The notes under the pieces are model-generated. The model was given only the letters and a program-made list of their open reading frames with translations, was not told where the DNA came from and searched no databases. Shown piece after piece: positions 19,851 to 40,217 of a stretch of 64,000 nt of DNA. The position numbers and the translations under genes were made by a program. How positions within the stretch are numbered: the first letter of the stretch is position 1; each line of letters opens with the position of its first letter. The DNA is from Patescibacteria group bacterium (GTDB lineage Bacteria > Patescibacteriota > JAQUNI01), in assembly GCA_028717685.1 (NCBI GenBank), contig JAQUNI010000001.1, positions 633,329-697,328 on the forward strand. Reading direction: 5' to 3'.

Positions 19851-19857
19851 AATATAT

Positions 19858-19931: not shown

Positions 19932-20021
19932 GACAAAAATATGGCTTAACAAATCCATATTTTTTATACCCCTTCGTGGACGTTAGAACTTTTTAATGAT
20001 ATAATGAAGTTATGAAAAAAT

Positions 20022-20173: not shown

Positions 20174-20373
20174 AAATAAACAACCATTGGCGGCGCGCTA
20201 ACGAAGTTGGCACAAAAAATTGCGGCGGCGGAAAAAGAAGCGGCGAAAGCTTGGGCGATCTAAAAGTTTTTCAAAATTCAGCGTTCGGCCCCGAAGGAAA
20301 GCCTTCGGCTTCCGACGGGATAAAATTTTCGCTAAAAAAAGTTCGGATTTCGTTCAGCGTTTGGAGCTCATAT

Positions 20374-20406
20374 AAAAAAATGGCTTATTTAAGCCATTTT
20401 TTGGTT
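20374..20406. promoter_or_regulatory. Family-A palindrome copy 1 (AAAAAAATGGCTTATTTAAGCCATTTTTTGGTT) upstream of TTGATA -35-like boxes
   Basis: Perfect A/T-flanked palindrome. TTGATA hexamers follow at 20424 and 20455. Confidence 0.6.
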
Positions 20407-20537
20407 AAAATTAGTAAAAATGATTGATAAAGTGTTGCTAAATATTACGTCTCTTTGATAAATTAGTAAAAAGTTATAAAATACATAGATCTTAATAATT
20501 TAAAGATAACTAAAAAGAAAGTATAAGAAGAAAGGAA

Positions 20538-21908
20538 GTGATAAAGATGGAGATGTTTAGTGGTTTTGATTTTTCGGAATACGGGTCACTCTCCAAGTTT
20601 GGGCAGCATCCGAAATTTGAAAGCTCGTTTAAAAAATGGCGGCGAAGGTTGCTCAATGGGCAATCCTCTAATGTTGTCAAATTAGCTGATATTCCGAAAT
20701 TAGGGAGTGTTTATCTTATCCCAAGGGATCAATATATAGAGATTGTTGATGGATTCGGGGATACGATCGCTATTGGAAGTCCTGGTAATGCTATGTTTCC
20801 ATTTAGCTCTTACGATTTTTTTGGAGACATCTATGAGGATGAGTATTTCCAGGAGCTTCTTCTGCAACCGTTCTTCCGCTTAGGAAAAATCAGTCAGCTC
20901 GGATATCTAGTTCCACCAAAGCCTGAGAGTTGGAAACTAAACGTTTCCATAATTTATCCCGCTCCTTATTTTGTCCATACCAGGTGGGCCCATTCAAGAT
21001 TAGTTGCCTTTTTAATGGAGGTGATTCTTGCTAAGCATGGCTATACAGAGAAAGAGCGGCTTCCTGTTGTTTTAACTGCTGCTTATCATGATGTTGCTAC
21101 GCCGGCGGGTGGGGACTCGGTCAAAAGAGTGGATGCTGAAGGTCTTAATGAAGAAGAGAATTTTGAATCGGTGCTAAGGCATTATGATTTGGTCCAAAAA
21201 TGGTCTGATAGGTATGGGTTTGATATAGAAAAAGCAAAACAATGGGTAAAGGGTATCGGGCTCTTTGGCAGACTCTTGGATATTATAGATAGAGTAGCCT
21301 ATACGGCATTGGACTGTTATTACGTGGGGTCTAGTCGTCCTTGTAAGCTTAGATTCTTTGGGCTAGAAAATCCTTTAACTCTGGACGTGTGGCAAGATTT
21401 AAAATTTAATGATGATCGCAATGACTTTGCTTTTACGGACCCAAACAGATTGTTCAAATTTTTACTCTTTAGGGCGTATGAGCACGAAGAGCTATTGATG
21501 AATCCGTATTCTAGGGCATTGGATTTTTTCCTGCAAAAGCTAGTCCAACCTCTATATAAAACGGGAATGATTATCCGGGAACAGCTTCTTTTGGGGGATG
21601 ATGAGTGGTTATATGGAGTACTTAAAAAACATTATCCAAATAAAAATTTGTGGGCCTTTATTGAGCCAGAGATTGTAATCTGGAAAAAGTTTGACAGTTC
21701 AGAGGGGCTTTGGAGGTTTTGTTTTGGAGATGAAACGATAGATCACGTAGAGCAGATCAAAGGTTTTGATACTGGTTTGGGTCTTGGAGTATACAGCGGC
21801 GCGGAGATTTTGCCCGTCAGAGAATTGCTGGCGGATGATCAGATTGAGGAGTTGGAAGAAATCAATAAGCAGGTAAAAGGATATTATGCTTATTGGATAA
21901 AAGAGTGA
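20538..21908 (+). CDS. HD-domain protein, divergent dGTPase/SAMHD1-like dNTP triphosphohydrolase family
   Basis: FFRLGKISQLGYL...HTRWAHSRLVAFLMEVI...LTAAYHDVATPAGGDSV aligns with the dGTPase motifs FRRLQ..KTQV / RLTHSLEV / AALLHDIGHPPFGH. Confidence 0.6.
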   Translation: MIKMEMFSGFDFSEYGSLSKFGQHPKFESSFKKWRRRLLNGQSSNVVKLADIPKLGSVYLIPRDQYIEIVDGFGDTIAIGSPGNAMFPFSSYDFFGDIYEDEYFQELLLQPFFRLGKISQLGYLVPPKPESWKLNVSIIYPAPYFVHTRWAHSRLVAFLMEVILAKHGYTEKERLPVVLTAAYHDVATPAGGDSVKRVDAEGLNEEENFESVLRHYDLVQKWSDRYGFDIEKAKQWVKGIGLFGRLLDIIDRVAYTALDCYYVGSSRPCKLRFFGLENPLTLDVWQDLKFNDDRNDFAFTDPNRLFKFLLFRAYEHEELLMNPYSRALDFFLQKLVQPLYKTGMIIREQLLLGDDEWLYGVLKKHYPNKNLWAFIEPEIVIWKKFDSSEGLWRFCFGDETIDHVEQIKGFDTGLGLGVYSGAEILPVRELLADDQIEELEEINKQVKGYYAYWIKE

Positions 21909-22028
21909 AAGGTTGGGACAGTGCTAAGGGAAACAAAATTTGTTTCCCTTTTTATTGACTTTTAGAAAAATTGGTTTAATATGAGGGTTAGTTTAATTAG
22001 TTCATTAAACTTGGTTTAATAAGAGAAG

Positions 22029-22829
22029 GTGACAAATATGAACCTACGAGCTTGGTTTCAGAGAAGATATGTAAATGAGATAGTAAAAGTTTTAGTTGAG
22101 GATGATAGAAAATGCCAAGAACTCATCAGGAGAGTAGAGGCGGATTATGAGGTCAAAGTAAAACTACCGGACTCAAACAGCATACCAAGTTGTTTTCTCG
22201 TTGATATGCTGGAAAGAGCCTTTACAACTGGAAAGATTGTTTTGCCTCCGAAGATTACCGTCCTTGATTTCGGGTGTGGCGATTGGTTCTATGCTCCCTT
22301 TTTACTGGGTTTTCTAAAACATTGGCAAGGATTCAGGGAGGTTTGTCTGGAGGGGATTGATTTTCCCAGTCGGAAAAATAAAAGGTCCCTACGCCGATTG
22401 CAGAAAGGAGAACCTGATTTAAGAGTCCATTGGGGCGACATTATGAATTTGTCCCAAGAGAACAAATACGACATAATTTTTGCAAGCCATATGGTGGCTT
22501 CGCCCCATCATTGTAAAATGTGGGGGGTTCCTTATTACAAGCCCAGTATGTTGTTCTCTTATTTACAATCTTTAGGAAAGCCCGACTGTTTGTTCGTTGT
22601 AATAGCTTATGAATATGCTGGAGAAGACGCGATTTTTCGTTGCTTTAAATCAAAGTTAACAGAATTTTTCTATCAACCTTTGGTCGAAAAAAAGTTTAGT
22701 TCCTTTCTTTATAATCGTCGCGGCTTTCATGACAACTCAATTTGTATCAGTAGATCTCCATTTGTGGACCTAGAAGCATGCGCGAGATATGAAGAGAAGA
22801 ATGAGGAAATGGACGCAATACTTTATTAA
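22029..22829 (+). CDS. Class I SAM-dependent methyltransferase
   Basis: Motif I VLDFGCGDW and an acidic post-I/II pattern (DIIFASHMV). ORF of 266 aa. Confidence 0.65.
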   Translation: MTNMNLRAWFQRRYVNEIVKVLVEDDRKCQELIRRVEADYEVKVKLPDSNSIPSCFLVDMLERAFTTGKIVLPPKITVLDFGCGDWFYAPFLLGFLKHWQGFREVCLEGIDFPSRKNKRSLRRLQKGEPDLRVHWGDIMNLSQENKYDIIFASHMVASPHHCKMWGVPYYKPSMLFSYLQSLGKPDCLFVVIAYEYAGEDAIFRCFKSKLTEFFYQPLVEKKFSSFLYNRRGFHDNSICISRSPFVDLEACARYEEKNEEMDAILY

Positions 22830-22831
22830 AC

Positions 22832-22864
22832 AAAGGACGGCTCTATCGGGAGCGTCCTTTTATA
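22832..22864 (+). terminator. Terminator-like hairpin
   Basis: AAAGGACGGCTCTATCGGGAGCGTCCTTT followed by T-rich sequence. Confidence 0.5.
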
Positions 22865-22908
22865 ATCTTAAGGATTACCGTTATCCGCTCCGTCTAAGAT
22901 ATAATGAG

Positions 22909-22977
22909 TAGCAGACCACGTCGCTCGCGAGCCCCGTCGCTCTTGAGCGACAGGGCGAGCGGCGTGGCAGGGCAAGG
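22909..22977 (+). other. GC-rich structured 5' leader element
   Basis: GTCGCTCGCGAGCCCCGTCGCTCTTGAGCGACAGGGCGAGCGGCG forms interlocking stems. It is preceded by a TATAAT -10 at about 22900. Confidence 0.45.
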
Positions 22978-23049
22978 TAAAATATGATAAACTAAGCTTG
23001 CGGGTTTAAATCAGGAGATATTTTCACTAAAAATATTAAAACAAAAAAT

Positions 23050-25020
23050 ATGAAATGGCGCGTGATTTTATTTATTGTTTTTTTCTGGTCAATCGCGGGA
23101 AAAATAGAGGCCGCTCAAGTGACCATCAATGCAACCGCGGATACCTATGTGAACTCTTATGCACCGACCCAAAATTTTGGCAGCGTTAATACTCTGGAGG
23201 TGCGCTCGCGCGATATTTCCCGCTCGAGTTTTCTCCAGTTTAATCTTTCCCACTTTATTCCCTTAGATGCGACGGTGACCAGGGCTTACTTGAAACTATA
23301 TCTTTTTGACAATTTTTGTTATACCAATGCCACCGCGCCGATGAATATCCGCATCTATCGGGTGAGCGGTCGTTGGTCTGAACAGAGCATTACTTACCAG
23401 AGCCAGCCTGATGCTTCCACCGTGGACGGCGCAAGCCTTACGCTTCCTCTAAATTCTGCCGCGGGATATAAAACTTGGGATGTTACGAATATTGTTAAGG
23501 GTTGGATTGATAACCAATATCTTAATTATGGTTTGCGCACATATTATTATTCAGAAAATAATTGTCAAGCCACATTTTATGCCCGTGAGGCAGGGGAAGG
23601 AATGAAGCCTCAGTTAGTTGTTGAATATACGCCGCCTCCGGACCGCACCCCGCCGCAGATTAGGGAAGTTTCAGCCGAAGTAACGGCGACGACAGCGACC
23701 ATTCGTTGGAAGACATACAATGACCCCTCTTCAAGCACGGTTGCTTACCGGCGGCCGGGAGCACAGCTCTGGCCAATCCAGAGCGCCGGGGGTTTAACAG
23801 TTGATCACAGTGTAACTTTAACCAATTTACAACCCCAAACACTATATCAATACACGGCGAAATCCAGAGACGCGGCAGGCAATGAAGCGGTTTCCGCGGT
23901 TTTAGAATTTACCACGGCAGAGGCCGAAGATCTGACTGCGCCGGATATTTCCAATCTGAGCGTTAATCACCTTTCAAGCCGCGCGGTAGAAATTATTTGG
24001 AGCTCGCAGGAAGAGGGGACAGGAGAGGTACGCTATAGCACAGATCGCCAACGCGTATCCATTGCCACCCAGGCGGGGCTCAAGACCAATCATACTGTGC
24101 GGTTGGAGCCGTTATTACCCGCCACAACTTACTATTTTGTGATTGACTCGGAAGATGCTCACGGGAACAGGACAGTCCGCGAGGAGGATCAATTTACTAC
24201 GCAGGCAGACGCTGCCGCTGAAGAAGAGGATGGAGAGGAACAGGATGAGGAAGAGAATTATAATCCTCTTTCCGTTTACAATATTGTTTCAGATGTTTTG
24301 AGCCCGACTAGTATGCGGTTCAGGTGGTGGAGCACAATTGACGGCACCTCTTGGGTTTTTGCTTCGGCAGACGCGGATGACGCGACATCGATTGAAGATT
24401 ATGAGTTTGTCGCGGGGCGCAATGATGGAGTAGATATGCACGAGGTTGTCTTGAACAATCTCGCGCCCGCCACAACCTATAGCTATCGCGTTCTAACGCG
24501 CGGCGCGGATGATCAAGTGGGTCTTTCAGAACTTAAAACTTTTCGCACTGACGCCCAATCTGCTCCCGAGGCCGCGGATGAGCAGCCCGAGGCACCTCCC
24601 CCGCTGCCGGCTGAACCCGATGGCACTCCGCAAGGTCAAGTCCCAGAACAAGTTACTGATCCGGCGGTGATTGAAGAGATTCGGCACCAGGCTCAAGAGG
24701 TAGTAGAGAAAAAAGAGAGTCCGGAGCCTGCCGTGAAAGAAAGTGAAAATTTGGAAGATGAGGGTCAAAAACCAGCCAACTTGGGCTCAAAGTTTTTATT
24801 TATTTTATCGCGCTTCTGGGTTTGGATTATTCTGGGGGGCGTTTTTTTCCTTGCTTTGCTGGGCATATTACTGTATTTATTATTACGCAAGAAAAAAGGC
24901 GGTGAAAATAGGGAGGCAAATCCCATCGCGTCGCAGCCAAGCAAGACAGTACCGAGCCAGATAGCGGCAGGGCAAACAGGCACGCAGACCCCCCAGCCCC
25001 AAAAGACCAAAAAGAGCTAA
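23050..25020 (+). CDS. Cell-surface protein: signal peptide, DNRLRE-like domain, fibronectin-III-like repeats, acidic linker, C-terminal TM anchor
   Basis: ATADTYVNSYAPTQNFGSVNTLEVRSRD...SFLQFNLS (DNRLRE-like). Repeated T-x-T-IRW/IIWSS...TLTNLQP..YQY segments (Fn3-like). Hydrophobic helix then a basic, P/Q-rich tail. Confidence 0.7.
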   Translation: MKWRVILFIVFFWSIAGKIEAAQVTINATADTYVNSYAPTQNFGSVNTLEVRSRDISRSSFLQFNLSHFIPLDATVTRAYLKLYLFDNFCYTNATAPMNIRIYRVSGRWSEQSITYQSQPDASTVDGASLTLPLNSAAGYKTWDVTNIVKGWIDNQYLNYGLRTYYYSENNCQATFYAREAGEGMKPQLVVEYTPPPDRTPPQIREVSAEVTATTATIRWKTYNDPSSSTVAYRRPGAQLWPIQSAGGLTVDHSVTLTNLQPQTLYQYTAKSRDAAGNEAVSAVLEFTTAEAEDLTAPDISNLSVNHLSSRAVEIIWSSQEEGTGEVRYSTDRQRVSIATQAGLKTNHTVRLEPLLPATTYYFVIDSEDAHGNRTVREEDQFTTQADAAAEEEDGEEQDEEENYNPLSVYNIVSDVLSPTSMRFRWWSTIDGTSWVFASADADDATSIEDYEFVAGRNDGVDMHEVVLNNLAPATTYSYRVLTRGADDQVGLSELKTFRTDAQSAPEAADEQPEAPPPLPAEPDGTPQGQVPEQVTDPAVIEEIRHQAQEVVEKKESPEPAVKESENLEDEGQKPANLGSKFLFILSRFWVWIILGGVFFLALLGILLYLLLRKKKGGENREANPIASQPSKTVPSQIAAGQTGTQTPQPQKTKKS

Positions 25021-25100
25021 GGATGTATTATTGCCTTCTTCTTAATTAGTTTTGCTCCTTTTTTGAGGGCATTCTTCTAAACACAGTTAAAATTGGAAAG

Positions 25101-26066
25101 ATGAAAAAGATTTTAATAATTGGATTGATTGCAGGTATTTTAGTAATTGGAATTATTGCCTTTTTCTTATTACATTTTTCTTCAGAAGAGGAGAATAATG
25201 TGGGCCAAGAATCAGAAATTTTTTGCGCAGATTACGATGGAAATCAACAAGAATGTTTATCCTATTCAGAATGCAAGTGGAGTTCAGATATAAATGAATG
25301 TGATTCAACAGATATGGTTGATGAAAATTATGAAGGATTGAACCAAGAATTAGAAAATATTGCTGTTCCAAATAATCCCTCAAATACTCTTTGCAAAAAA
25401 ATACCTTTGTCAGGTAAACCTCCTTATGGTGAAAGATATTACTGTTTGGCAGTTGTAAATCATGATGAAAGATTTTGTGAAGGGATTGATGAAGAAAAGG
25501 GGAAAAATATTTGCCTAGCCCATGCAAAAGCAGACCCCTCTTATTGTAAAAAAATCCAAGAAGATTCAGCTAAACATGTTTGTTATTATATGCTTGCGGT
25601 ATCAAGCAAAAATGCTGATTTTTGTAGTGATATTAGTTATAGCCAACATGAAAAAGAACAATGCTATTTTAATTTTATGAGTAATTTATATCAGTGGGAT
25701 AAATCTGATGAGATAAAAACAGAATACTGTAATCAACTTGGTACTCCAGATAAAAATACTTGTCTTGCGTTAAAGGCGAGAGATATTTCTCTTTGCGGAG
25801 ATAATCCTCATTGTTTGACTTTTTTTGGGCAAGATTTGTCTTTTTGTGATGAACATCCTGAAATAGATGGTTGCATAAAAGATAGGGCAAAGACAAGTAA
25901 AAATGTGTCAATTTGTGAATTACTTCCCCAGCCAGATAGAGATAGCTGTGTCGGGGTTTATTGCACCCACACAGAGCTTGATGTTAATATTTGTGATAGG
26001 ATTGAGGGTATTAAAGAAAGGCAAGACAGGTATATAGAACTTGCAATGAATTTAGGTAATTGGTAA
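25101..26066 (+). CDS. Membrane-anchored cysteine-rich protein, hypothetical
   Basis: N-terminal TM helix. More than 30 Cys in a repeating C..C pattern. Confidence 0.5.
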   Translation: MKKILIIGLIAGILVIGIIAFFLLHFSSEEENNVGQESEIFCADYDGNQQECLSYSECKWSSDINECDSTDMVDENYEGLNQELENIAVPNNPSNTLCKKIPLSGKPPYGERYYCLAVVNHDERFCEGIDEEKGKNICLAHAKADPSYCKKIQEDSAKHVCYYMLAVSSKNADFCSDISYSQHEKEQCYFNFMSNLYQWDKSDEIKTEYCNQLGTPDKNTCLALKARDISLCGDNPHCLTFFGQDLSFCDEHPEIDGCIKDRAKTSKNVSICELLPQPDRDSCVGVYCTHTELDVNICDRIEGIKERQDRYIELAMNLGNW

Positions 26067-26159
26067 AAATTTAATGCCGCAAAATCCTAAAAGTTTATTT
26101 TGTTTTTTTTATTCATTCTGATTCAAAATTAAAATCCAGTAATTTTTTCCTAGGGGAAA

Positions 26160-26197
26160 TTGGGGTCAGATCTTGTATCTTGACCTCTTTTTATTTT
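26160..26197 (+). terminator. Family-B conserved terminator copy 1
   Basis: TTGGGGTCAGATCTTGTATCTTGACCTCTTTTTATTTT. Confidence 0.6.
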
Positions 26198-26238
26198 AAA
26201 GCGGTTCATAACTTGGTCCGCCTTGGAGGAATTTATAT

Positions 26239-26269
26239 AAAAATGGCTTATTACAGCCATTTTTTGGTT
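26239..26269. promoter_or_regulatory. Family-A palindrome copy 2 upstream of TTGACA/TATCAT promoter
   Basis: AAAAATGGCTTATTACAGCCATTTTTTGGTT, then TTGACA at 26277 and TATCAT 17 nt later. Confidence 0.6.
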
Positions 26270-26619
26270 AAATAATTTGACAAAATAATTCAACTGTTTT
26301 ATCATTATATTTTATAACTCATAATTTACTGAAAGAGGCGATTTTTTGAAACACGAACATTGTTTTTTGGAAGATAGACTTTTTCAGTAGAATAGAGAGT
26401 TTCAATCTCTATCCTAGTAATGATAATGATTTATAAGTTCTACTGTTCATTCACAATTGAATAAGGTTAGAAAATCTTGAAATTTCTGTGAGGAGGAAAT
26501 GATGAAATCAAAGAATTATAATAAGAGATGGTTGGAAAAGTAGAGGTTATTTTTTAGCTATCTTTAGTTACGCTTGATTAGTAGGATACAAGGGTGTGAA
26601 AATCAAGAAGGAGAAAAAA

Positions 26620-29600
26620 ATGGTAAAAGGTGATGTTGATAGAGTGAAGGGGTATATTGATAGTGGTCTGATTGATCCTGTCAAAATAGCTCAAGAAATT
26701 GAAGGGTTGCCAGCATTACAGGTGGCTTATATTATTGATACGTATGACTTGATGCCGTCTACAATTGAACGTGGTGAGCTATATGAATCTGATAGTTTTA
26801 TTGACTTAGCTATGAAAACCCCTGGAATTCTTGAGGATACTCGTTTTGAAATACTTGCGCGATTTCATGAAAATTATGCTGCTAAGCTTTTTGCAGAAGG
26901 GCTGAAACTTTATCTTGATAGTCAAGAGGGAACTATTTTCGAATTTAATAAAGATACTGAAATAGATCCTACCAAGCCAATATCTTTTGTGAGGATTACT
27001 TACCGTCCTAATAAAGGAATAGAGCTGAAATATCTAAATGGAAATGCGCCTAGTAAGGGGTTTTATACCGTTTATTTGGGGAATAATTACACGGTTGTGT
27101 TTGATAACTCGGTTTTTAATAATAGGAAGGCAGTTTTTGAAGAACTTAGCTCAATTTTTTTATCTCGCAAAATTACATTTGTGGACTGTTCTCAGGAAGA
27201 GTTAAATGTGGTACAGCAATTAGAATCCGCTTTCTTATTAGCTTCAGTTGGCAGGACTCCGGTCTCTTGTCGATTTAAAGAGTCTTTCTTAATTGAGTGG
27301 TTGTCTTGGCAGGGCAAGCGGCAATTAGCCCGTGAGGAGGTAAAGCTTTTAGCCCGCCTCCTAAGGGAGAAAAATTTGTCTATCATGACTCCGGCAAGAA
27401 TTAAGCTTTATAAAGCTTCAAAAGGGCAATATGATAGAAGGCTTTTGACGGATATATTCTTTAGGAAGGAGGAGCCCAAAAAAATGGTTTCTAATATAAA
27501 TTGCCTAATGAATTTTAATATGGATTTAGCAGGCATTAAAGGTCCTATTGAAAAAGCGCCATTTCATATTTTAGCTCAAGACGTACCGATTAAGGTTGCT
27601 CCATTAAAAGGGTCGATTTCTTGCGCTTCTTATCTCATGAAATTTTATCCAGGGTATGGGGTATTAGACCAAAGTAAATCCATAATGGTATTAGATGAAC
27701 TTTCGCGCGAGAAGCGCTCTCGTTTGTATCTTAGCTTCTTTTATGATCCCGAGAGTCCGCTTTACAAAGCGCATTCCGCTTTTAGTAATGAAGTTAGCAA
27801 ACAGCTCAGAGAAAGAGGATTAGATAATGCCCGAAAGCTAATCCAGGCTTATATTGTTCGAAATAAGATGAGGATTGAAGATATAAAAGCCGAGGATATA
27901 GCTTTTCTATTTTCAGGTGGTTCTACTTTTTCTTTGTGCGGGATAAAAATACCTCATAGGACGAGACTTATTATGAATAAGATCTTTCCTGACGAATACG
28001 GACGGCTTTCTTTAGAAAGCGGTGAGGAATTATTTTCGCTTGATAATGAAGGCTTAATAGGTATTCGCAAAAGAGCTTATTTTGACGATGGTGCTGATGA
28101 TGCCGATATTTATACATCGGATGAGTTAAAGAGAATCAAGGAACGTTTTCGAGAAAATAGCAAAATGGCAATTAAATGCTATCTTGCTTTGCATCCCGAA
28201 AAAAGCTTAGATCTATTAAGCCAAGGAGATTTGACCGCTATTTCAGCTAAAATGTTGAGAATTTTGGGCGGTAGTTCTGTAAGGGTTTGTTTGAATAGAT
28301 TGATGCCTGATCAGTTCTTAATCCTTGATGAGGAAAAATCCCTTCATTATCTCATGGCAAAAGATAGGGATAAATTTTCTTTAGCCAGAAGATACATTCC
28401 GGATTATTACCATATCGTAGAGGAGGAGCCAGATAATTCCCAAATTTTATATGATGAGCATGATATAGCAGTGATTCGTGAAAGAACTATTGAGAATCTG
28501 AGAACTCTTGTTAAAACTCTTTTAAAATTCAAAGGATTTAGGTTTGTAGAGGAATTGGGCAGGCATAATACTGAAGGGCTGATTGATTTGCGCATTTTAG
28601 GCAATGCTTTCCCTAGTAGAGTTGATGGCAGTAATAATTTTATTGCTTCCACGAGAAAACTTTTCTTTAATGATTACGGTGTTTTAACTGAAGAAAAGTA
28701 TAGATATTGGAAGCATCAGGCAACGGGTCCAAAGAAACGTTATTTAAGCAATGTTTTTTTTATGGATCCAGACCTTGAAGATGGCTGGACTAAAGAAGAA
28801 ATTGAGGTAATCAAGTCACAATCTAAGAAAAATGCTATATTAGCCCTTAAGCTTTATATGCAAGAAGAAGGTATATTAGATATTCATAATATAACCAAGG
28901 AGATGCTGATAAAAGGAGTTGGGAAGCAGCCATTACTTCGTATCCTTGGTGTTTCTAGCTTTAGGAGCATTTTGAATGAAATATTCCCGGATGATTTTGC
29001 TGTTTTAACCCAAAACGGAGTTAAAAATTATTTTTCTTCTTCAACTACCCAGAAGCAGGCTCTTAATTATTCCTACTTTGGGACAAATGCTGACGGAGGG
29101 CTTGAACGGTATGCTGAAATTTCTGGCTTGAATAAAAAGTGGGTTTCTAATGCTATTGTGATGTTTCTTGAATTTCTAAGGGTAAATAGACTGTCATGGA
29201 AAGTATTCGGAGATGATGGGAGTTTACATTCTGATATTACTTTTACTCTTCCGGACAGTGTTTTTAGGATATTCAAGACCGATAACCATCACTTCATGTG
29301 GATTAAGGAGCAAATCGCGCCATTCCTTCATCCCATTGAAGATACAGAAGCTTTCTATTGGATCAATCTTGCTGAAACTGTAAATTTAGTAAAATTTTGG
29401 CAGTTAGATGATCTAAAAAATACTAATAGAATTCAAGACGTTCCTCTGCAGTTAAGAGCTAGAATCGCCGCAAAGGTTTTTGAGCATGGATATCCTTTTA
29501 TTTCTAATCAAAGAAACATGCTCGCAGCTGATTCAAAGGCGCTATTGCTTGCTAACCTTGATTCAATATCGGATCAACTTGATGGGATTGAAAAAGTTTT

Positions 29601-30228: not shown

Positions 30229-30254
30229 GTTTCCAGTGATTCAGGAGGTTTAAG

Positions 30255-31136: not shown

Positions 31137-31419
31137 GTTTTCTGGGTTATTCTGAAAAAGAATAACCCTTTTTATTACTAAAATTTTAAAACAGACCGTG
31201 CTTTTTTTGTATTTATTTTTAATTGTTTAAATATATTTAGCTTCCACGAAAGAAAGATTTTTGAATTCTCCTGTAATTTTGTCCCAATCCGTCAAAATAG
31301 AGGAGGTTTAGAATAGTTTTTTTGTTTGCCGAAAGTAGGTTATAATAAAAAAGATATCCCCTTCAAGTTTGCTGCGGCTGGGTAATTTGTTAGTATATTG
31401 GAGACAAAAATCAAGGTGT

Positions 31420-32772: not shown

Positions 32773-32775
32773 GTT

Positions 32776-33576
32776 TTAGTTCGGGTAAACAACTATAATG
32801 GCTTTGCGGCCAGTGGGGATATCTTTCTCTAATTCTAAATTGTTTAATTCGCCGCCGCCAAAAGGCGCGTCGTGAACAGCGTTATATAGAACATTAGCGT
32901 TGTAAACATAATTGTAGCCTCTTCTTGTGCCGACATCATTGGTAATAAAGTTGCCATCTTTAGTTATACCTTTAACCACGATCATATGATAAATCGGTCC
33001 GGGTTGGCGATAAAACGGATTGTTGACCATGCGGCCAGCTAAGGGCACGATGACTGGACGGCCGGCAATTATTTGCGTTTTAATATCTTCCAGAGAAATA
33101 TCATAATCGACATCTACCCGTTTATAACCAAAATATTCTTTTAGTATTTGTCCGGTTTCTTTGGCGGTGGTATGTTCGTAATAGCCAAAGGTTTTATTTT
33201 CCCAATCTACTATTTTAAGAATTTCTTGTTTGGCAATTGCCGGAGTAAGCTTTTCGTGTTTGTAAAAGCGGTCAACTAAAAGAGCCGAGGTTTCTTCGCA
33301 GGCTTCTCCATATGGCAAACTCCAATCTTTATATGGCGCTTGGGCGGAAAAGGGCACAGCTAAGTTTATGCCGGCAAATTTAGTGGAGGTGGCGGCAATG
33401 GGCGACGTTGAAACATTTTCAACCTCTGTTGGCAATTGGCGTTTCTCCAATTCCAGAATAAGGTCTCGAATATTGCTGCGAAAATAAAAAGCCGAAATCC
33501 CGACAACTATCAATGCCCCCGCGGTTATTAATATTTTTTTCATACTATTTATTATACAATATTTATATAATATCAA
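32776..33576 (-). CDS. Membrane-anchored peptidase C39-like domain protein
   Basis: N-terminal TM helix. C39-like (PF13529-type) pattern with Cys (EACEETSALLV) and His (PIYHMIVVKG) segments. Confidence 0.55.
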   Translation of the reverse strand: MILYKYCIINSMKKILITAGALIVVGISAFYFRSNIRDLILELEKRQLPTEVENVSTSPIAATSTKFAGINLAVPFSAQAPYKDWSLPYGEACEETSALLVDRFYKHEKLTPAIAKQEILKIVDWENKTFGYYEHTTAKETGQILKEYFGYKRVDVDYDISLEDIKTQIIAGRPVIVPLAGRMVNNPFYRQPGPIYHMIVVKGITKDGNFITNDVGTRRGYNYVYNANVLYNAVHDAPFGGGELNNLELEKDIPTGRKAIIVVYPN

Positions 33577-33641
33577 ACAATATTAAGCCCACGCATTTCG
33601 CATTCTGATGCCGTTATGATAAAGGCAATCGCAGAATCAAA

Positions 33642-34169
33642 ATGCGTAGCCCCAATAACCTTATTATGAACAAGCATTTAAAAGTTAAATCTTTCCAGGA
33701 AACTTTAAACGCTGGCATGTGCGGGCCGGCTAGTTTAAAGATATTATTTAGTTATTATGGGATAAATAAGACAGAAAAAGAATTAGCCAAGATGATTGGA
33801 TGGGATAAAGATCTAGGGGTAGATGATAAAGGAATCAAACAGGTGGCAGAAACACTGGGTTTTAAGGTAAAAATAAAGAATAATAGCAGCTTCGGAGATA
33901 TTGAGAACTGGCTAAATAAAGGCGTGCCAGTTATTGTGGACTGGTTCACGCGAGGCAGATCTGACTATCCTGATTCGGAAACAGCCGATGGACATTATTC
34001 GGTTGTAGCCGGTTTGGATAATAAATTTATTTATCTTCAGGATCCGGAGATTGGAAAAATAAGAAAAATAAAAAGGTATGATTTTATGAGAGTATGGTTT
34101 GATTTTAAAGGGGACTATATTCAGAAAAATAAATTGATAATTAGACAGTTAATAGTAATTTATCGCTAA
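33642..34169 (+). CDS. Peptidase C39-like domain protein
   Basis: NAGMCGPASLKILFSYYG...DGHYSVVAGLD are classic C39-like Cys and His motifs. Confidence 0.7.
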   Translation: MRSPNNLIMNKHLKVKSFQETLNAGMCGPASLKILFSYYGINKTEKELAKMIGWDKDLGVDDKGIKQVAETLGFKVKIKNNSSFGDIENWLNKGVPVIVDWFTRGRSDYPDSETADGHYSVVAGLDNKFIYLQDPEIGKIRKIKRYDFMRVWFDFKGDYIQKNKLIIRQLIVIYR

Positions 34170-34262
34170 TAAGATGTTTGGAAAGTATCGTTTTTCCGAG
34201 AGCGCAAATATAGTAACTCCCAAAATACTAGGACCTAAATCCGAAGAACTATTAAGAATAAA

Positions 34263-34301
34263 TTTGGGGTCAAGTCTTAAAGCTTGACCTTTTTTTATTT
34301 T
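34263..34301 (+). terminator. Family-B conserved terminator copy 2
   Basis: TTTGGGGTCAAGTCTTAAAGCTTGACCTTTTTTTATTTT with a perfect 7-bp GGTCAAG/CTTGACC stem. Confidence 0.7.
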
Positions 34302-34373
34302 AAATTATAAAATCGCCAGAAGGGCGATTTTTTGGTAAAATAAAAAAGAGTTCATTAAAATAAAAACAAATTT

Positions 34374-34832
34374 ATGCATTTAAAAGTAAGATACATTTTT
34401 ATCCTTGCCCTTTCGGTCATTTTTATAGGAATTGGCATATATATTTTGTTTTCAAAGACAAAAAAGGAGTCTTCTAAAACTCCAGAGAGGACTCAAATTA
34501 TTTGGGTATTGGAAAAAGCGGGCGAAGATAAGGAGACAGGAGCGCCGCTTACGAGAGTAAAAGTAGATTTCAAAGGTGAAATCAATAAAGGATATGACGC
34601 GGGGGTTTATGCCGGAAACTGTTTTGAGATTGCCAAATCTGAATGGGAACTCTTAGAAAATGAAGTTTCGGGAGTGATTTGCTGGTGGGCAGGCGGGGGA
34701 GATGAAATCGGTATTTTTCAGGAGGATGACAAATTGGTTATCAAACACGGGACACTGAGCGCGGGTGGTCCTGCCACAGAAGATGAGCCAGCCATACCGA
34801 ATTTTAGAGGCGACTTTGAAAAACTTTTTTGA
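34374..34832 (+). CDS. Membrane-anchored hypothetical protein
   Basis: N-terminal TM helix then a roughly 120 aa soluble domain. Confidence 0.4.
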   Translation: MHLKVRYIFILALSVIFIGIGIYILFSKTKKESSKTPERTQIIWVLEKAGEDKETGAPLTRVKVDFKGEINKGYDAGVYAGNCFEIAKSEWELLENEVSGVICWWAGGGDEIGIFQEDDKLVIKHGTLSAGGPATEDEPAIPNFRGDFEKLF

Positions 34833-34882
34833 AATGAAAGTAAGACCTGTTTTTTAACCCCAATAAAAAGAAGCATTATTTT

Positions 34883-35626
34883 ATGAAGAGAATTTATCTT
34901 TTATTTTTTTTAGTTATTATAATTGCCGTCATTGTTTTATTAGTTTATATTTTTTTTCAAAAGCCAAAATCATCCTTGCCGCAAAACAATCTCCCCACGG
35001 TTTCAACCAGCGAGCCAAGGCAGAAAAATAATTCGCCATCAGTTTCAAACACAGAGCCAGCGCCGCAACAAACCCAACCCAAAAATGCAAATGTCGGAGA
35101 TACTGGCAAAGGAAGTGCAAGTATTTTTCAACCTCCTTTGGATAGAGCAGGGGAAAGGGTACTTAAGAAAAAGTTTGGTATGTATATCACTCCTCAAAAT
35201 TCGCCAGTGCAGCCGGAAAGATTTCAAGGATATCACACGGGAGTTGACTTTGAAATTTTTCCCGAGGAGTTAAACGCAGAGGTCCAAGTCCACGCGGTTT
35301 GTTCAGGAGAACTCAAGCTGAAAAAATACGCGTCTGGTTATGGAGGAGTCGCAGTTCAGGCTTGCGAATTAGATAAAGATCCGATAACTGTGGTCTATGG
35401 ACACTTGAAATTGTCTGGTATCGCTGCTGATGTTGAAACAAATATTAATGTTGGCGAAATAATTGGGATTCTAGGAGCTAATAGAAGCGTGGAGACAGAT
35501 GGTGAACGCAAACATTTACATTTAGGTTTTCATAAAGGAACAGCGATAGATATTCGAGGTTATGTGAGTTCGGAGGCAGAACTCGCTAACTGGATTGATC
35601 CCTGCCTTTATGTTTGTCATAATTAG
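34883..35626 (+). CDS. Peptidase M23 (LytM-type) family protein
   Basis: HTGVDFEI...GYGGVAVQ...VVYGHLKL...HLHLGFH are M23 metallopeptidase motifs. N-terminal TM helix. Confidence 0.8.
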   Translation: MKRIYLLFFLVIIIAVIVLLVYIFFQKPKSSLPQNNLPTVSTSEPRQKNNSPSVSNTEPAPQQTQPKNANVGDTGKGSASIFQPPLDRAGERVLKKKFGMYITPQNSPVQPERFQGYHTGVDFEIFPEELNAEVQVHAVCSGELKLKKYASGYGGVAVQACELDKDPITVVYGHLKLSGIAADVETNINVGEIIGILGANRSVETDGERKHLHLGFHKGTAIDIRGYVSSEAELANWIDPCLYVCHN

Positions 35627-35644
35627 AGCTATAAATTTTAAAAA

Positions 35645-35684
35645 GTTTGGGGTCAGGTCTAAAAAATTTAACCTCTTTTTTATT
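35645..35684 (+). terminator. Family-B element copy 3 (stem degenerate)
   Basis: TTTGGGGTCAGGTCTAAAAAATTTAACCTCTTTTTTATTT. The sequence is conserved but the 3' arm is mutated (TAACC for TGACC). Confidence 0.5.
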
Positions 35685-35742
35685 TGTTGGCTCCACAGCC
35701 TTCGCTAACGCTTAAGACTATGGAGCCAACAACTGACATCTA

Positions 35743-35771
35743 AAATGGCTTACTTAAGCTATTTTTGGTTT
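35743..35771. promoter_or_regulatory. Family-A palindrome copy 3 upstream of a TTGACA promoter
   Basis: AAAATGGCTTACTTAAGCTATTTTTGGTT, then TTGACA at 35785. Confidence 0.55.
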
Positions 35772-35995
35772 TGAATAGTAAATATTGACAAAAAGTAGAT
35801 AGTATGCTATTCTATGAGCATAGTTCTTTGTAAATGAGACTTACCGAAATTTTACCGATTTTCCTTATTTTACCTCTGCTATTTCAGAGATTTAATTATT
35901 TTAGATGCCTGAAATGGCAGAGGTTAGTTTTGTCCATCTGTTGTCGCGTAAATTTAGTTGTAATAGTAAATGGGATAAAACCCAAGGAGAGAAAG

Positions 35996-36292
35996 ATGAA
36001 GATATTAAAGTTTTTAGCAATAGCAGTGACATTTTTGTTGGGTATTGTTTTTGCGATTTTTACAGTATTATTAGGGATAGGATATTTATCCATGGTTTTT
36101 ACTGGTACCCACTTATCTGCCGAAGAGCAGACAGAAATCTTGCTTATGGGTCTGCCAATATCTGCTTCCTGTTTGGGATTGGGGTATGTCTCTTATGGAT
36201 TTTTCTCTTTTTTCCACTGGTTGCGGAAACGTTGGTTTCAGGTGAACAGAGAGGAGAAATTTGGGGTCAGGACATTTGGGGTCAGGTTTTGA
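35996..36292 (+). CDS. Small membrane protein, hypothetical
   Basis: ATG at 35996 after GGAGAGAAAG, in frame with ORF 35834. Three TM helices. The 3' end overlaps family-B copy 4. Confidence 0.4.
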   Translation: MKILKFLAIAVTFLLGIVFAIFTVLLGIGYLSMVFTGTHLSAEEQTEILLMGLPISASCLGLGYVSYGFFSFFHWLRKRWFQVNREEKFGVRTFGVRF

Positions 36293-36313
36293 AACTTGAC
36301 CTCTTTTTTTATT
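36259..36313 (+). terminator. Family-B conserved terminator copy 4 with internal duplication
   Basis: ATTTGGGGTCAGG occurs twice in tandem, then TTTTGAAACTTGACCTCTTTTTTTATTT. Confidence 0.6.
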
Positions 36314-36498
36314 TCTAAATTTCATTATCCCTTCGGTAAACTTAGGGTAAGCACCTTCGGCTTCACTCAAGGCAAGCATCATTTATCCAAGCGGGAAAAG
36401 TTTTACAAACCGAGCTATCTGTTCGGAAGTTTTTTTATAAAGCGAATTGCCAAAAAGGCGAATTTTTTGTAAAATAAAATAAAATAATACAAATATTT

Positions 36499-38940
36499 AT
36501 GTTATCAGGAGGATTAAGCGAAAAACAAGTTTTAGAATTAAGAGAGAAATTTGGCGAGAATTTGATTCTATCTAAAGAGAAAACCACTTGGCTTTCAATT
36601 TTATTATTTCAACTTAAGAGCCCCTTAATTTATATTTTAATTGTTATCGGGTTTATTTCCCTATTTTTTAAAGAATACTTTGATCTGATTTTAATTTGGT
36701 CCGTGATCGTCCTTAATACCCTGATGGGTTTTTTCCAAGAATACCATGTTAAAAAAACCCTCGCTGCTTTTAGAAAACTTTTAAAGCCTAAGGCGCTAGT
36801 TGTCCGAGAAGGCAAAAGGAAGGAGATTGAAGCAAGGGAATTAGTGCCGGGCGATTTGGTTGTTTTAAATTCTGGAGATAAAGTCCCGGCTGACGGAAAA
36901 ATCATCGAAGGAGTAAATTTGTTAATTAATGAAGCAATTTTAACCGGCGAAGAGGAGGCGGTGGCGAAAACAACAGAGAAAGAAAACAGTCTTGCTTTTA
37001 TGGGCACGATGGTGATTTCCGGCAGGGGAATCATAAAAGTTTTAAATATCGGGAAAGAAACAGCAATTGGAAAGATTGAGCAAAAATTAGCCGACATAAA
37101 AGAAAGGAAAACGCCGATTCAGCTGAAACTTGACGAATTTTCAAAAAGTTTAGGGAAGATTATTTTAATCGTTTGCGTAATTGTTTTTTTAGTAGGATTG
37201 TTCTATCGGGTAGACGCTTGGGAAATGTTTAAGTTCGCCGTTATCCTGGCGGTGGCGGCAATACCCGAGGGTTTGCCGATAGCGATAACCGTGATTTTAG
37301 CCCTCGGGGTGAGGAGAGTATTAAAAAGAAACGGGCTGGTTAAAAGGTTAATTTCAGTTGAGACCCTAGGTTCAACCTCGGTTATTTGCACCGATAAAAC
37401 CGGAACCCTGACAGAAGGAAAAATGAAAGTCGTAAAAACAGATTTTTTAGATAAGGGAAAAACATTGCTTGCTTTAACTTTGAATAATGAGCAAAGGAGC
37501 GGTTTGGAGGCTGCTATTTGGGATTATGTAAAAAAGGAAAAGAGATTTAACCCCCAAGATATTTTTGATAAAGCGGAAAGAATTTATGAGGAGCCATTTG
37601 ATAGCGAAAAGAAATATTCAATGACTATAAATAAAGTTGAAAATAAGGAAATTGCTTTTTTGAAAGGGGCTCCAGAAATTATTCTTTCATTTTGCCAGAT
37701 TTTTGATGAAGAGAAAAATAAAATTTTGAGAGAAATTGAAAAATGGGCGGACGAGGGATTGAGAATTTTAGGGGTAGCTTTTAAAGAGAAAGGAAATTTA
37801 AAGGAGAAGAAAGGATTTTCTTGGCTTGGCTTAGTCGGTATTATTGATCCGATCAGGAAAGATGTGAGAGAGGCAATTTTGAGCGCTCAAAAAGCCGGGA
37901 TAGAAATTAAAATAGTGACCGGCGACTATCGAAAAACAGCCGAAAGATTAGCAGCCAATCTCGGATTTAAACTCGCGCCAAAAAATATTTTAGAAGGTCA
38001 GATGCTGGAAGCTATTTCAGAGGAAGAACTTGAAAAGAAAATAGACGACATTGTTGTATTCAGCAGGGTTGCCCCCCATCAAAAACAAAAAATAGTAAAA
38101 GTGCTTCAGGAAAAAGGAGAGATAGTGGCGATGACAGGAGATGGCGTAAATGATGTCCTTGCCTTAAAAAAAGCCGATATTGGCGTCGCGGTAGGAAGCG
38201 CTTCCGAGGTAGCCAAGGAAGCGGGAGATTTAATTTTACTGGACAATAATTTTACGACGATTGTCGCGGCAGTGGAGGAAGGCAGATTAATTTTTTCAAA
38301 CATTAAAAAAGTTGTAAGTTATGTTCTCTCCAATTCTTTTGTGGAGATTTTTTTGATTTTCGGCTCCATAATTTTAGATTTGCCCTATCCTCTTATAATA
38401 GTTCAAATTTTGTGGCTTCACCTTATTTGCGACGGACCACCCGATATTATATTGGGCTTTGAGCCTAAAGAAAAAGATCTTATGAAAGAAAGACCAGAAA
38501 ATCTTCGGAAAGAAAGCATTCTCTCTAACGCAATGAAATTTTTAATCTTCGGAATCAGTTTTATTATCGGATTCCTCTGTTTATTTCTCTTCTGGTATAT
38601 TCTGGAAAAAACAGGGGATCTAATTTTTGCTCGCACCATTATTTTTACAACAGTCGCCATAGTTGATTTAATTTATATTTTTTCTTTTAAGAATTTGAAA
38701 AAACCCATTTTCAAAACCGAGAATTTTTTCAAAAATAAGCTTTTGTTTTTAGGCGTGCTTTATGGACTTTTACTTACTTTCGCCGCCATTTATTTGCCTG
38801 TTTTGAATCGAATTTTAGGCACAGAGCCTCTCAAACCAATTCATTGGTTATTAGTTTTAAGCGTTGCTTTAATTGCTACCCTTTGGGCTGAATTAGTTAA
38901 AATTGTATATAATCGAAAACATAGGCTTAATAATAATTAG
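36499..38940 (+). CDS. P-type cation-transporting ATPase (P2/P3-type, Ca2+/Mg2+-like)
   Basis: DKTGTLT phosphorylation motif, TGDGVNDVLALKKADIGVAVG hinge and TGES-like region. 8 to 10 TM helices. Confidence 0.9.
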   Translation: MLSGGLSEKQVLELREKFGENLILSKEKTTWLSILLFQLKSPLIYILIVIGFISLFFKEYFDLILIWSVIVLNTLMGFFQEYHVKKTLAAFRKLLKPKALVVREGKRKEIEARELVPGDLVVLNSGDKVPADGKIIEGVNLLINEAILTGEEEAVAKTTEKENSLAFMGTMVISGRGIIKVLNIGKETAIGKIEQKLADIKERKTPIQLKLDEFSKSLGKIILIVCVIVFLVGLFYRVDAWEMFKFAVILAVAAIPEGLPIAITVILALGVRRVLKRNGLVKRLISVETLGSTSVICTDKTGTLTEGKMKVVKTDFLDKGKTLLALTLNNEQRSGLEAAIWDYVKKEKRFNPQDIFDKAERIYEEPFDSEKKYSMTINKVENKEIAFLKGAPEIILSFCQIFDEEKNKILREIEKWADEGLRILGVAFKEKGNLKEKKGFSWLGLVGIIDPIRKDVREAILSAQKAGIEIKIVTGDYRKTAERLAANLGFKLAPKNILEGQMLEAISEEELEKKIDDIVVFSRVAPHQKQKIVKVLQEKGEIVAMTGDGVNDVLALKKADIGVAVGSASEVAKEAGDLILLDNNFTTIVAAVEEGRLIFSNIKKVVSYVLSNSFVEIFLIFGSIILDLPYPLIIVQILWLHLICDGPPDIILGFEPKEKDLMKERPENLRKESILSNAMKFLIFGISFIIGFLCLFLFWYILEKTGDLIFARTIIFTTVAIVDLIYIFSFKNLKKPIFKTENFFKNKLLFLGVLYGLLLTFAAIYLPVLNRILGTEPLKPIHWLLVLSVALIATLWAELVKIVYNRKHRLNNN

Positions 38941-39020
38941 CAGATATAATGATAAAATTCCATTTTACCTCTTTTTTATTTGAATCCTCACAGGAGTTAT
39001 CTTTCAATTACTATAAAGAG

Positions 39021-39058
39021 GAGGGGTCGAGTCTAAAAAGCTTGACCCTTTTTTATTT
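39021..39058 (+). terminator. Family-B conserved terminator copy 5
   Basis: GAGGGGTCGAGTCTAAAAAGCTTGACCCTTTTTTATTT. Confidence 0.65.
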
Positions 39059-39154
39059 CTATATTCTAGCAAAGCAGATGATTATTTTTTAATACCCACA
39101 TTAGATAGCAAGAAATTTTGTGATATAATGAATGTGATTTTTAAAAACAAAACT

Positions 39155-39757
39155 ATGAAAAAAATTGCCATTATCGTGGGTGCGATGTTGCTTTTTTCGG
39201 GTTGTAGTATTGGTGCGAATAAAGCATCCGAATCTGATACCAGCCAAGTCCAAAAAGGGAAAGAGGGAGAAGTTTGCAGCGCCAGCAAGATTTGCGAGGA
39301 GGGACTGAAATGTATCAGTAATATCTGTTCTTCGGGGGTCGTTGGTTCGGCATGCGCGACTTATAAAGATTGTCAAACGGGGTTGTACTGCATTAAAGCG
39401 GTCTGCTCTAATCCGCCTTCTTATACCCAATACTTTAACAAAATTCAGATCGGTAAAATGAAACCAGAACCGCCAGGGCCAAAAAATATTCCCGTTCCTG
39501 CCACCGAATTTACCTCGGCTGACACTCTGGAAATTGATGTGCAGACCAAAACCGGCGTGACAGGCACTTTGCATTATGAACTCATCAATGCCACGACAGG
39601 TCAAACCGAAATGTCTAGCGCGGACAACAAACAGAAAGTAGCGCCAGGATCGTGGGGGACAGGGTTCATGATCCCTGCAGGATTGTCGGGGCAATACGAT
39701 TTGAATATCTATTTTAATGACGAGCTTATTTACACGACTACTATTACTGTGACCTAA
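39155..39757 (+). CDS. Lipoprotein with Cys-rich N-terminal region, hypothetical
   Basis: Signal peptide with lipobox LFSGC. Repeated C..C.SNIC/KAVC motifs then a beta-rich C-terminal domain. Confidence 0.55.
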   Translation: MKKIAIIVGAMLLFSGCSIGANKASESDTSQVQKGKEGEVCSASKICEEGLKCISNICSSGVVGSACATYKDCQTGLYCIKAVCSNPPSYTQYFNKIQIGKMKPEPPGPKNIPVPATEFTSADTLEIDVQTKTGVTGTLHYELINATTGQTEMSSADNKQKVAPGSWGTGFMIPAGLSGQYDLNIYFNDELIYTTTITVT

Positions 39758-39763
39758 TAGTAA

Positions 39764-39794
39764 ACCCCGTTAGAGAGTCGTTCTCTAATGGGGT
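39764..39794 (+). terminator. Family-C conserved hairpin copy 1
   Basis: ACCCCGTTAGAGA-GTCGT-TCTCTAATGGGGT, starting 7 nt after the stop codon. Confidence 0.65.
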
Positions 39795-40009
39795 AAATAA
39801 CGAAATCGCAGAACCATAAGGAGGTGTGCATTTTGACTACACTTTTTTTGAGCTGACTAATTAAACAGGTTCTAACCCTTCGGCTTAGTTCGATAGGTAT
39901 GACGGTGAGCCCGTCGAACCGATAACTATAAATTGCTTGAGGGCAGGCGTTCGTCCCGAGAGGACTTGAGCCCCGAGGGGCTATTGTCTACGATGCGGAG
40001 TTTATATTA

Positions 40010-40043
40010 AAAAAATGGCTTAAATAAAGCCATTTTTTGTTTC
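40010..40043. promoter_or_regulatory. Family-A palindrome copy 4 upstream of a TTGACT promoter
   Basis: AAAAAATGGCTTAAATAAAGCCATTTTTTGTT, then TTGACT at 40049. Confidence 0.6.
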
Positions 40044-40217
40044 CAGTATTGACTTATCCGACAAAATAGGAAATAATGATGTTTATAGGATTTATTTTTT
40101 TTATTGAGATGGTTCTTTTTTACTAAAATTAATCTAGTATATTAAGCGGCAGAAGCGACCTTTGAGATGTATATAATATTTTTTGAAGTAATCATTATTT
40201 TTTGTGGAGGTGAAGAT

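Follow-up and report, generated by a model that had tools for sequence, protein, structure and literature searches.

A 64-kb stretch of the genome of a bacterium of the Candidate Phyla Radiation (CPR), assigned to the Patescibacteria and called here the window, contains several copies of a short palindrome that we call family A; its coordinates are given on the + strand of the window. An earlier reading of the stretch, referred to below as the original prediction, had proposed that the palindrome is an operator shared by accessory genes. We find instead that its copies are probably paralogous Rho-independent terminators, potentially bidirectional, that derive from the end of a tRNA-Asn gene and were placed by recombination when blocks of genes were gained or exchanged. 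The element is an ordinary one, and its copies happen to mark junctions between blocks in a CPR genome. The features that carry the argument are these.

19858..19931, + strand: tRNA-Asn gene (GTT), detected by ARAGORN and by the Rfam tRNA model (74.9 bits).
19935..19964, + strand: diverged family A hairpin AAAAATATGGCTTAACAAATCCATATTTTT, fold -7.2 kcal/mol, z -3.8, aligning to the single hairpin of the related contigs L146 and L148.
19964..20362, + strand: window-specific insert of about 430 nt, absent from L146, L148 and L137 (blastn breakpoints and sequence).
20363..20409, + strand: family A copy 1, with GGAGC, A-tract, hairpin, T6 and GGTTAAA (fold and alignment of relatives).
26225..26272, + strand: family A copy 2, with GGAG, hairpin and TTTTTTGGTTAAA (repeat search, fold and strain comparison).
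35722..35771, + strand: family A copy 3, with GGAGCCAAC, a hairpin containing a G:U wobble, and TTTTTGGTT (fold and strain comparison).
39982..40039, + strand: family A copy 4, a unit of 58 nt (fold and alignment to L150 15756-15811).

The four core copies, whose hairpins we designate by positions 20377, 26240, 35742 and 40012, follow, on reading the sequence, the consensus AAAATGGCTTA-loop-(T)AAGCYATTTTT(T)GKTT, with a centre of 2-3 nt. All are intergenic, all lie on the + strand, and a repeat search groups them as a single 35-nt family whose members are 69-100% identical. The exact 11-mer AAAATGGCTTA is found five times at four loci, for an expected 0.17, and none of 100 shuffled sequences reaches five occurrences; the four copies listed by the original prediction are thus confirmed as a repeat family. 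Within the window, the family is confined to 19.9-40.1 kb, since both the covariance model built on it and the count of the 11-mer find no copy in the other 44 kb of the window. A further degenerate relative had been proposed at 41972..42008 (+) and is rejected: its z-score against shuffled sequences is -0.35, and the covariance model misses it even at E<=10.

The four hairpins fold at -9.8 to -12.8 kcal/mol, with z-scores of -3.1 to -5.0; three G:C pairs stand in the core of the stem, and a run of five or six T's directly follows it in every copy. A scan of the window anchored on T-runs places all four among the terminators. At low stringency, the Rfam models matched by family A are matched only at the 3' terminator ends of unrelated small RNA and leader models; with the gathering score and with permissive E-values, Rfam reports two tRNAs and no other known RNA family. 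The loops measure 4, 6, 4 and 5 nt, so the spacing between half-sites is not fixed. The right, loop-proximal arm is altered in copy 26240, and the change in an arm of copy 35742 yields a G:U pair, which forms in the RNA of the + strand only. A 9-bp stem, TTGGCTCCA/TGGAGCCAA, precedes this last copy.

The likely origin of the repeat appears when the window is compared with close relatives, which are 90-96% identical to it at the nucleotide level. A scan with an extended motif found the metagenome contig Ga0265296_1000111 (L137), 97% identical to window 20363-21563; L146 is a longer stretch of the same strain, L148 and L150 together give 43.7 contiguous kb of a near-identical strain, and L152, being 100% identical to the window, does not count as a third strain. 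In L137, L146, L148 and L149, an identical hairpin starts 7 nt past tRNA-Asn and is followed by the gene of an HD-domain protein, with 96-97% identity across both. Copy 20377 is identical to this hairpin. Given its place 7 nt after the tRNA gene in these relatives, it would be the original intrinsic terminator of tRNA-Asn.

More distant genomes point in the same direction. In L133, tRNA-Asn is followed by 8 nt and then by AAAATGGCTTACTATAGCCATTTTTTGTTT; the genes downstream are different, and none of the window proteins tested, the HD-domain protein included, has a homologue there. Since L133 keeps the hairpin without the HD gene, the hairpin travels with the tRNA. In L127 the 3' end of the tRNA is followed by AAAATAGGCTAATATTAGCCTATTTTTT, and in L125 a hairpin made only of A/T pairs comes after tRNA-Asn. 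Drift of the sequence with conservation of the structure, after tRNA-Asn or a neighbouring tRNA in these three genomes, looks like the pattern of a terminator. The original prediction had proposed to compare orthologous loci: in L137, L146, L148 and L133, they place the hairpin at the 3' end of a transcription unit, 7-8 nt past tRNA-Asn, and not in association with a promoter. In the window, likewise, family A copies come after + strand genes or after terminators of a second family, family B, described below. It had also been argued that family A is conserved beyond what a terminator needs. Recent common descent explains this conservation, and the distant relatives do change the sequence while keeping the structure.

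In the window itself, the hairpin that directly follows tRNA-Asn is the diverged one at 19935, and it forms the left repeat of the window-specific insert. It had been listed as a degenerate relative at 19935-19970, and this holds: window 19856-19963 aligns at 89% to the single hairpin of the close relative, and the palindrome is preserved by a matched insertion of AT in both arms. The blastn breakpoints of the insert are window positions 19963 and 20363, corresponding to L148 9852 and 9813, and homology resumes at GGAGC. The insert contains a promoter-like site (19977-20005), an open reading frame (ORF) for a hydrophobic protein of 53 aa (20012-20173) and about 190 non-coding nt that include a G+C-rich stretch. 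By separating tRNA-Asn from copy 20377, its presumed original terminator, the insert has placed a diverged hairpin of its own beside the tRNA. Direct repeats that include the 3' end of the tRNA, namely the copies at 19935 and 20363, flank this strain-specific insert.

The same 3' end provides a possible trace of the origin of the other copies. In every family A copy, GGAG is found 11-19 nt upstream of ATGG, for example as GCGGAG at 39995 and within GGAGCCAAC at 35722. The tRNA-Asn gene ends with GCGGAGCC, which matches this GGAG. Because they share it with the tRNA end, the extra copies look as if they had been copied from the junction between the tRNA end and its terminator.

The original prediction rested largely on the promoters next to the hairpins. 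The best sites found by a promoter scan downstream of the four copies are listed here.

20455..20482, + strand: promoter-like TTGATA-16-TAAAAT, the best site upstream of the HD-domain gene.
26277..26305, + strand: promoter-like TTGACA-17-TATCAT, for the operon of the 1210-aa and 293-aa proteins, outside the repeat.
35785..35813, + strand: promoter-like TTGACA-17-TATTCT, TG-extended.
40049..40077, + strand: promoter-like TTGACT-17-AATAAT.

Every copy had been said to precede a -35 hexamer with a plausible -10 box. This is true at 26277, 35785 and 40049, and not at copy 20374: the TTGATA found there, 17 nt downstream, lacks a -10 box, and the best site, at 20455, comes 48 nt past the element. 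With the bounds of the element as originally drawn, its end lies 7 nt (26277), 13 nt (35785) and 5 nt (40049) from the -35 box. Counted from the T-run, the distance is 20 or 52 nt for the first copy and, in order, 11, 17 and 9 nt for the other three: the promoter has no fixed position. Overall, the scan yields 53 sites against 51 in shuffled sequences, and 10 against 9.6, hence no excess. A promoter-like site is present in every intergenic gap of the window, and therefore adjacency to a -35 box is not specific to the family A hairpin. Moreover, the copies cease to resemble each other about 10 nt beyond the T-run, which leaves the promoters outside the repeat. Local alignment of the 120-nt flanks on either side of the copies gives no significant similarity beyond the element, except for the family B terminator at copies 2 and 3, and the equivalent of copy 40012 in the close relative has a different downstream promoter and a different gene. 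The alternative that had been offered to the operator, a terminator-promoter insulator module spread by duplication, is therefore half right: the terminator modules are related by descent, and the promoter lies outside them.

The comparison of the window with L148 and L150 reveals a mosaic of shared and strain-specific genes from tRNA-Asn to about 43 kb. The HD, methyltransferase, CBM96/fn3, M23 peptidase and ATPase genes are shared. The ORFs of 1210 aa, 293 aa, 152 aa (at 35834), 209 aa, 332 aa and 53 aa have no counterpart in the 43.7 kb of the relative, which carries instead genes for proteins of 1003 and 1085 aa, Band_7, DUF998 and others; MurJ and a C39 peptidase are inside the variable region in the window and not in the relative. 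Only two family A copies exist in these 43.7 kb: the copy that follows the tRNA, and another at L150 15786. The latter is the positional equivalent of copy 40012. A unit of 58 nt is kept there between window 39982-40039 and L150 15756-15811, with an alignment score of 48 against 20.6 +/- 2.3 for shuffled sequences; outside this unit, neither the flanks nor the genes to the left and right are related between the two strains. Copies 26240 and 35742 are absent from the relative together with the genes downstream of them, the 1210-aa/293-aa pair and the 152-aa gene, respectively: copy 26240 lies at the left border of the window-specific segment 26149-34308, and copy 35742 heads a window-specific block with the 152-aa gene. 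The G+C content dips to 0.35-0.38 over the window-specific segment at 26-32 kb. Breakpoints fall in intergenic terminator regions; the one at 26148 sits before family B, not at family A, and the one at 21956 is exactly in the T-run of an unrelated terminator. Three genomes with 85-90% identity to the MurJ protein (L125, L127 and L129) have neither A nor B copies in 21 kb each, and little common gene order. In L125, the distance from tRNA-Asn to MurJ is 0.7 kb, against 11.5 kb in the window.

These observations suggest the following history. The module would comprise about 45-58 nt: GGAG, 9-19 nt, an A-tract, a stem of 7-8 bp with GGCTTA/TAAGCC, five or six T's, and GGTT. The founding copy would be the intrinsic terminator of tRNA-Asn, and the extra copies, derived from the junction of the tRNA end and the terminator, would have been placed at the edges of strain-specific blocks by recombination, during the gain or exchange of these blocks. 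The RNA hairpin followed by its U-run would end transcripts that arrive from upstream; where family B comes first, family A would act as a second, back-up terminator. The next block would be insulated and would start from its own, unrelated sigma-70-type promoter, 5-13 nt past the repeat (48 nt for the first copy).

Family A indeed has the architecture (A-tract, stem-loop, U-tract), the size and the energy of Rho-independent bidirectional terminators. Like them, it comes directly after a tRNA gene and after protein genes of the same strand, and it drifts in sequence across relatives with its structure kept. Contrary to terminators that evolved independently, several copies within 20 kb have in common their stem, their flanks and the last bases of the tRNA, and are therefore paralogues; contrary to ordinary terminators, two of them lie behind another terminator.

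Some points weigh against this reading. We observe directly the repeat, the hairpin, its position after the tRNA in relatives, the presence or absence of copies between strains and the limits of the similarity; we infer termination, from sequence alone, and the mode by which copies spread. The match of GGAG with the tRNA end was spotted post hoc, and the tRNA covariance model recovers no tRNA remnant beyond GGAG(CC) upstream of the copies that are not at a tRNA, including in short windows at copies 1 and 3. Family B sits 44-58 nt upstream of family A at 26240 and 35742, where there is no evident need for a second terminator. The family A hairpins, whose stem is A/T-rich with only three G:C pairs, were missed by a simple terminator scan; the reason is that the A-tract pairs with the T-run. 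A covariation test, which found one compensatory change and one G:U change, is uninformative, since 60 of 500 shuffles do as well; the copies are too alike for covariation to be visible. Finally, the sequence read amounts to 64 kb for this genome and about 65 kb for the close relative.

It is natural to ask whether the tRNA end and its hairpin could be an attachment site. The attL and attR sites of tRNA-linked genomic islands are direct repeats that contain the 3' end of the tRNA, and family A likewise overlaps such an end, flanks strain-specific DNA and stands where a variable region starts at the tRNA. In this reading, which we consider unlikely, the 3' end of tRNA-Asn and the hairpin are a crossover site for the integration or exchange of blocks, either through a recombinase whose gene lies elsewhere or through short-homology recombination, and the copies are junction scars of tandem islets beside tRNA-Asn; such a role is compatible with that of a terminator. 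The insert of 430 nt lies between direct, diverged copies that both start with GGAGC, and the distal one is the relative's, as attL and attR predict. In both strains the variable region is bracketed by the family A hairpin of tRNA-Asn and a distal copy (40012; L150 15786). The 58-nt unit of the distal copy, kept between differing genes, the stretching of the interval from tRNA-Asn to MurJ and the dip in G+C content would also fit, as would the family B repeats, which at one and the same locus border a different block in each strain. However, no integrase, transposase or other recombinase is found in the 64-kb window, nor in the Pfam lists of L146, L148 and L150; the overlap with the tRNA is a mere 4-6 nt, and the repeat is mostly terminator; the only cleanly flanked insert is that of 430 nt; breakpoints are not always at family A, as those at 26148 and 21956 show; conserved genes, for the P-type ATPase, the M23 peptidase and MurJ, lie inside the supposed islands; and neither viral contigs nor phage families yield a match. 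Specifically, scans of viral contigs with families A and B give zero matches, the 1210-aa protein is without a phage match, and none of ten block proteins matches PHROG. Other recombination sites resemble family A in being imperfect palindromes between gene blocks: integron attC sites, and the Xer-type pdif sites of Acinetobacter plasmids, lie between exchangeable modules. Here, the R''/R' cores of attC (RYYYAAC/GTTRRRY) are, by eye, absent in three of the four copies, and the blocks have their own promoters. Only copy 26240 has a GTTAAAT core, with no inverse core, and the Pfam scan finds no IntI; neither an IntI core nor a Xer-type core could be recognized by eye in family A, and an identity with integron attC or Xer dif sites is rejected.

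Three further readings were considered. That of the original prediction, an operator for a dimeric transcription factor that overlaps an UP or -35 region and defines a regulon of accessory genes, is now extremely unlikely. It had in its favor a near-perfect palindrome, ATGGCTTA-N2-3-TAAGCCAT, and three copies that end 5-13 nt ahead of a good -35 hexamer. Yet the founding copy is a tRNA terminator, the spacings within the palindrome and to the -35 box vary, and the promoters are not homologous to each other. The changes in the arms preserve the pairing of the RNA and not the symmetry of the DNA (the G:U pair at 35742, the mutated loop-proximal arm at 26240), identical hairpins are scattered singly across unrelated phyla, and no DNA-binding regulator is found among the 60 window ORFs scanned with Pfam. 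Very unlikely, too, is a mobile palindrome similar to repetitive extragenic palindromes (REP) or miniature inverted-repeat transposable elements, spread by a REP-associated tyrosine transposase (RAYT), a single-strand transposase of the IS200/IS605 type or the like. REP sequences and bacterial interspersed mosaic elements are short, multi-copy extragenic palindromes that may terminate or stabilise transcripts. Family A, too, is palindromic, short, extragenic and repeated, and its hairpin has a conserved GGAG at a roughly constant distance on the 5' side, but its copies in the window are only five, in one orientation and within 20 kb, with none in the remaining 44 kb; the relatives at 85-90% MurJ identity have none and the close relative only two; no RAYT gene was seen, and neither a Y1 nor any other transposase appears in the window or in the loci of relatives examined; and the source in a tRNA terminator is evident. 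As for a small peptide translated from the ATG of ATGGCT through the hairpin, with GGAG as its ribosome-binding site, its probability is close to nil: three copies would read MAYLSHFLVK..., MAYYSHFLVK* and MAYLSYFWF*, but copy 40012 reads MA*, GGAG, at 13-19 nt from the ATG, is too distant, and at the tRNA-linked copy it belongs to the tRNA itself.

The shape of the hairpin is by no means restricted to this genome. A scan of a genome collection with the core motif returned at least 120 loci, nearly all of them single copies among the matches listed, which come from Clostridia, Acholeplasmatales, Campylobacter, Saccharibacteria and many other CPR lineages. Seven of 136 such hairpin sites elsewhere directly follow tRNAs, among the matches listed, a proportion that has no baseline rate and that we do not treat as an enrichment. 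The combination of an A-tract, a ATGGCTTA stem and a T-tract thus appears to be a generic shape of terminators, with independent origins. The peculiarity of this window is that several related copies are in one place. Searches of the literature on CPR genomic islands and on repeat families of terminators retrieved nothing relevant.

The main value of the copied terminator reading is that of a correction: in a compact A/T-rich genome, a palindrome beside -35 boxes is easily mistaken for an operator, and the comparison with close relatives reveals a copied terminator instead. A bolder conjecture, rather doubtful in our view, is that terminator modules A and B are the recombination joints of a block exchange that diversifies the genes of surface and secreted proteins in CPR bacteria, with no recombinase nearby; the 58-nt family A unit conserved between non-homologous genes may be such a joint. 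If the link with block junctions holds genome-wide, it would give insight into how strain-specific surface-protein genes are reshuffled in very small CPR genomes, and provide a sequence marker for variable regions in metagenome assemblies.

Family B terminators have the form TGGGGTCAGG-loop-CTTGACCTCTTTTT and are found in the close relative as well as in the window. Those of the window are the following.

26161..26195, + strand: TGGGGTCAG...CTTGACCTCTTTTT, 44 nt upstream of family A copy 2 (repeat search, fold).
34265..34299, + strand: family B terminator (repeat search, fold).
35648..35683, + strand: family B terminator with a degenerate right arm, whose equivalent is at L150 8842 (repeat search, fold, strain comparison).
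36277..36311, + strand: family B terminator with its left arm tandemly duplicated just upstream (repeat search, fold).
39018..39054, + strand: family B-like terminator after the P-type ATPase gene, kept in the relative (strain comparison, T-run scan).

In the relative, family B is found at about L150 1128 and at 8842, 9790 and 12528. In the gap that separates the M23 peptidase gene from the ATPase gene, the strain-specific gene enclosed by B copies differs between the strains: it is the 152-aa gene here and a DUF998 gene in the relative. The tandem duplicate of the left arm (TTTGGGGTCAGG twice, 36258-36290) is located at the end of the 152-aa ORF.

A third hairpin family, family C, has the form AAAATCGCC-N5-GGCGATTTTTTGGTAAAAT and occurs at 34303-34346 and 36447-36480 in the window, and in the relative at L150 7474-7520, 9956-9990 and 12566-12606 and at L148 19267-19317. 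It overlaps a promoter-like site (TCGCCA or TTGCCA, 17 nt, TAAAAT, often TG-extended) and is conserved together with the gene downstream; one copy in the relative is preceded by GGGGGAGCAAAT, as in family A. A long G+C-rich hairpin of about 21 pairs, GCCACGTCGCTCGC...GCGAGCGACGTGGC around GTCGCTC-TTGA-GAGCGAC, is found just after the -10 box in 5' leaders, at window 22906-23011 and at L150 2097-2200, 8894-8999 and 9836-9890 (truncated). The genes that it precedes are CBM96 in both strains and, in the relative, DUF998 and the ATPase gene; it has no match in Rfam and could be either a repeat element or a cis-regulatory RNA. Other G+C-rich repeats, with GGCGGGCTTCG, follow tRNA-Ser: they are at window 7241-7330 and 58064-58109 and, inverted, at L150 15623-15669. 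A 47-nt stretch of 58064-58109 recurs, inverted and 98% identical, in the non-coding gap of the relative upstream of its A-like copy.

The gene content of the window suggests a CPR bacterium: it includes a 23S rRNA intervening-sequence protein, many ORFs without a family and a run of + strand genes. The homologues of its MurJ, HD-domain and P-type ATPase proteins all come from CPR assemblies. The blocks downstream of family A had been described as non-housekeeping, which is only partly true: that following copy 26239 includes MurJ, a lipid II flippase. In the same block, the leader that extends from the promoter-like site to the 1210-aa ORF (26306-26595) is unusually long, about 290 nt, and holds a short ORF, MMKSKNYNKRWLEK, with a strong ribosome-binding site, GAGGAGG.

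Close to tRNA-Asn, the 126-aa protein encoded at 19429-19809 belongs to the 23S rRNA intervening-sequence protein family (135 bits), with a marginal match to bAvd, an accessory protein of diversity-generating retroelements; no reverse transcriptase is found among the window ORFs scanned. Between this gene and tRNA-Asn, at 19818-19852, stand five tandem 7-nt units (ATTACTA ATTACTA ATTACCG ATTACTG ATTACGA). Small ORFs for GIY-YIG endonucleases are found immediately upstream of tRNA genes. The one at window 6825-7145 adjoins tRNA-Ser (7153-7240), and the one at L146 9502-9744 adjoins tRNA-Asn and is an insertion relative to the window. A third, at L127 7332-7844, directly precedes a group I intron (Rfam, 86 bits) lodged within a tRNA gene.

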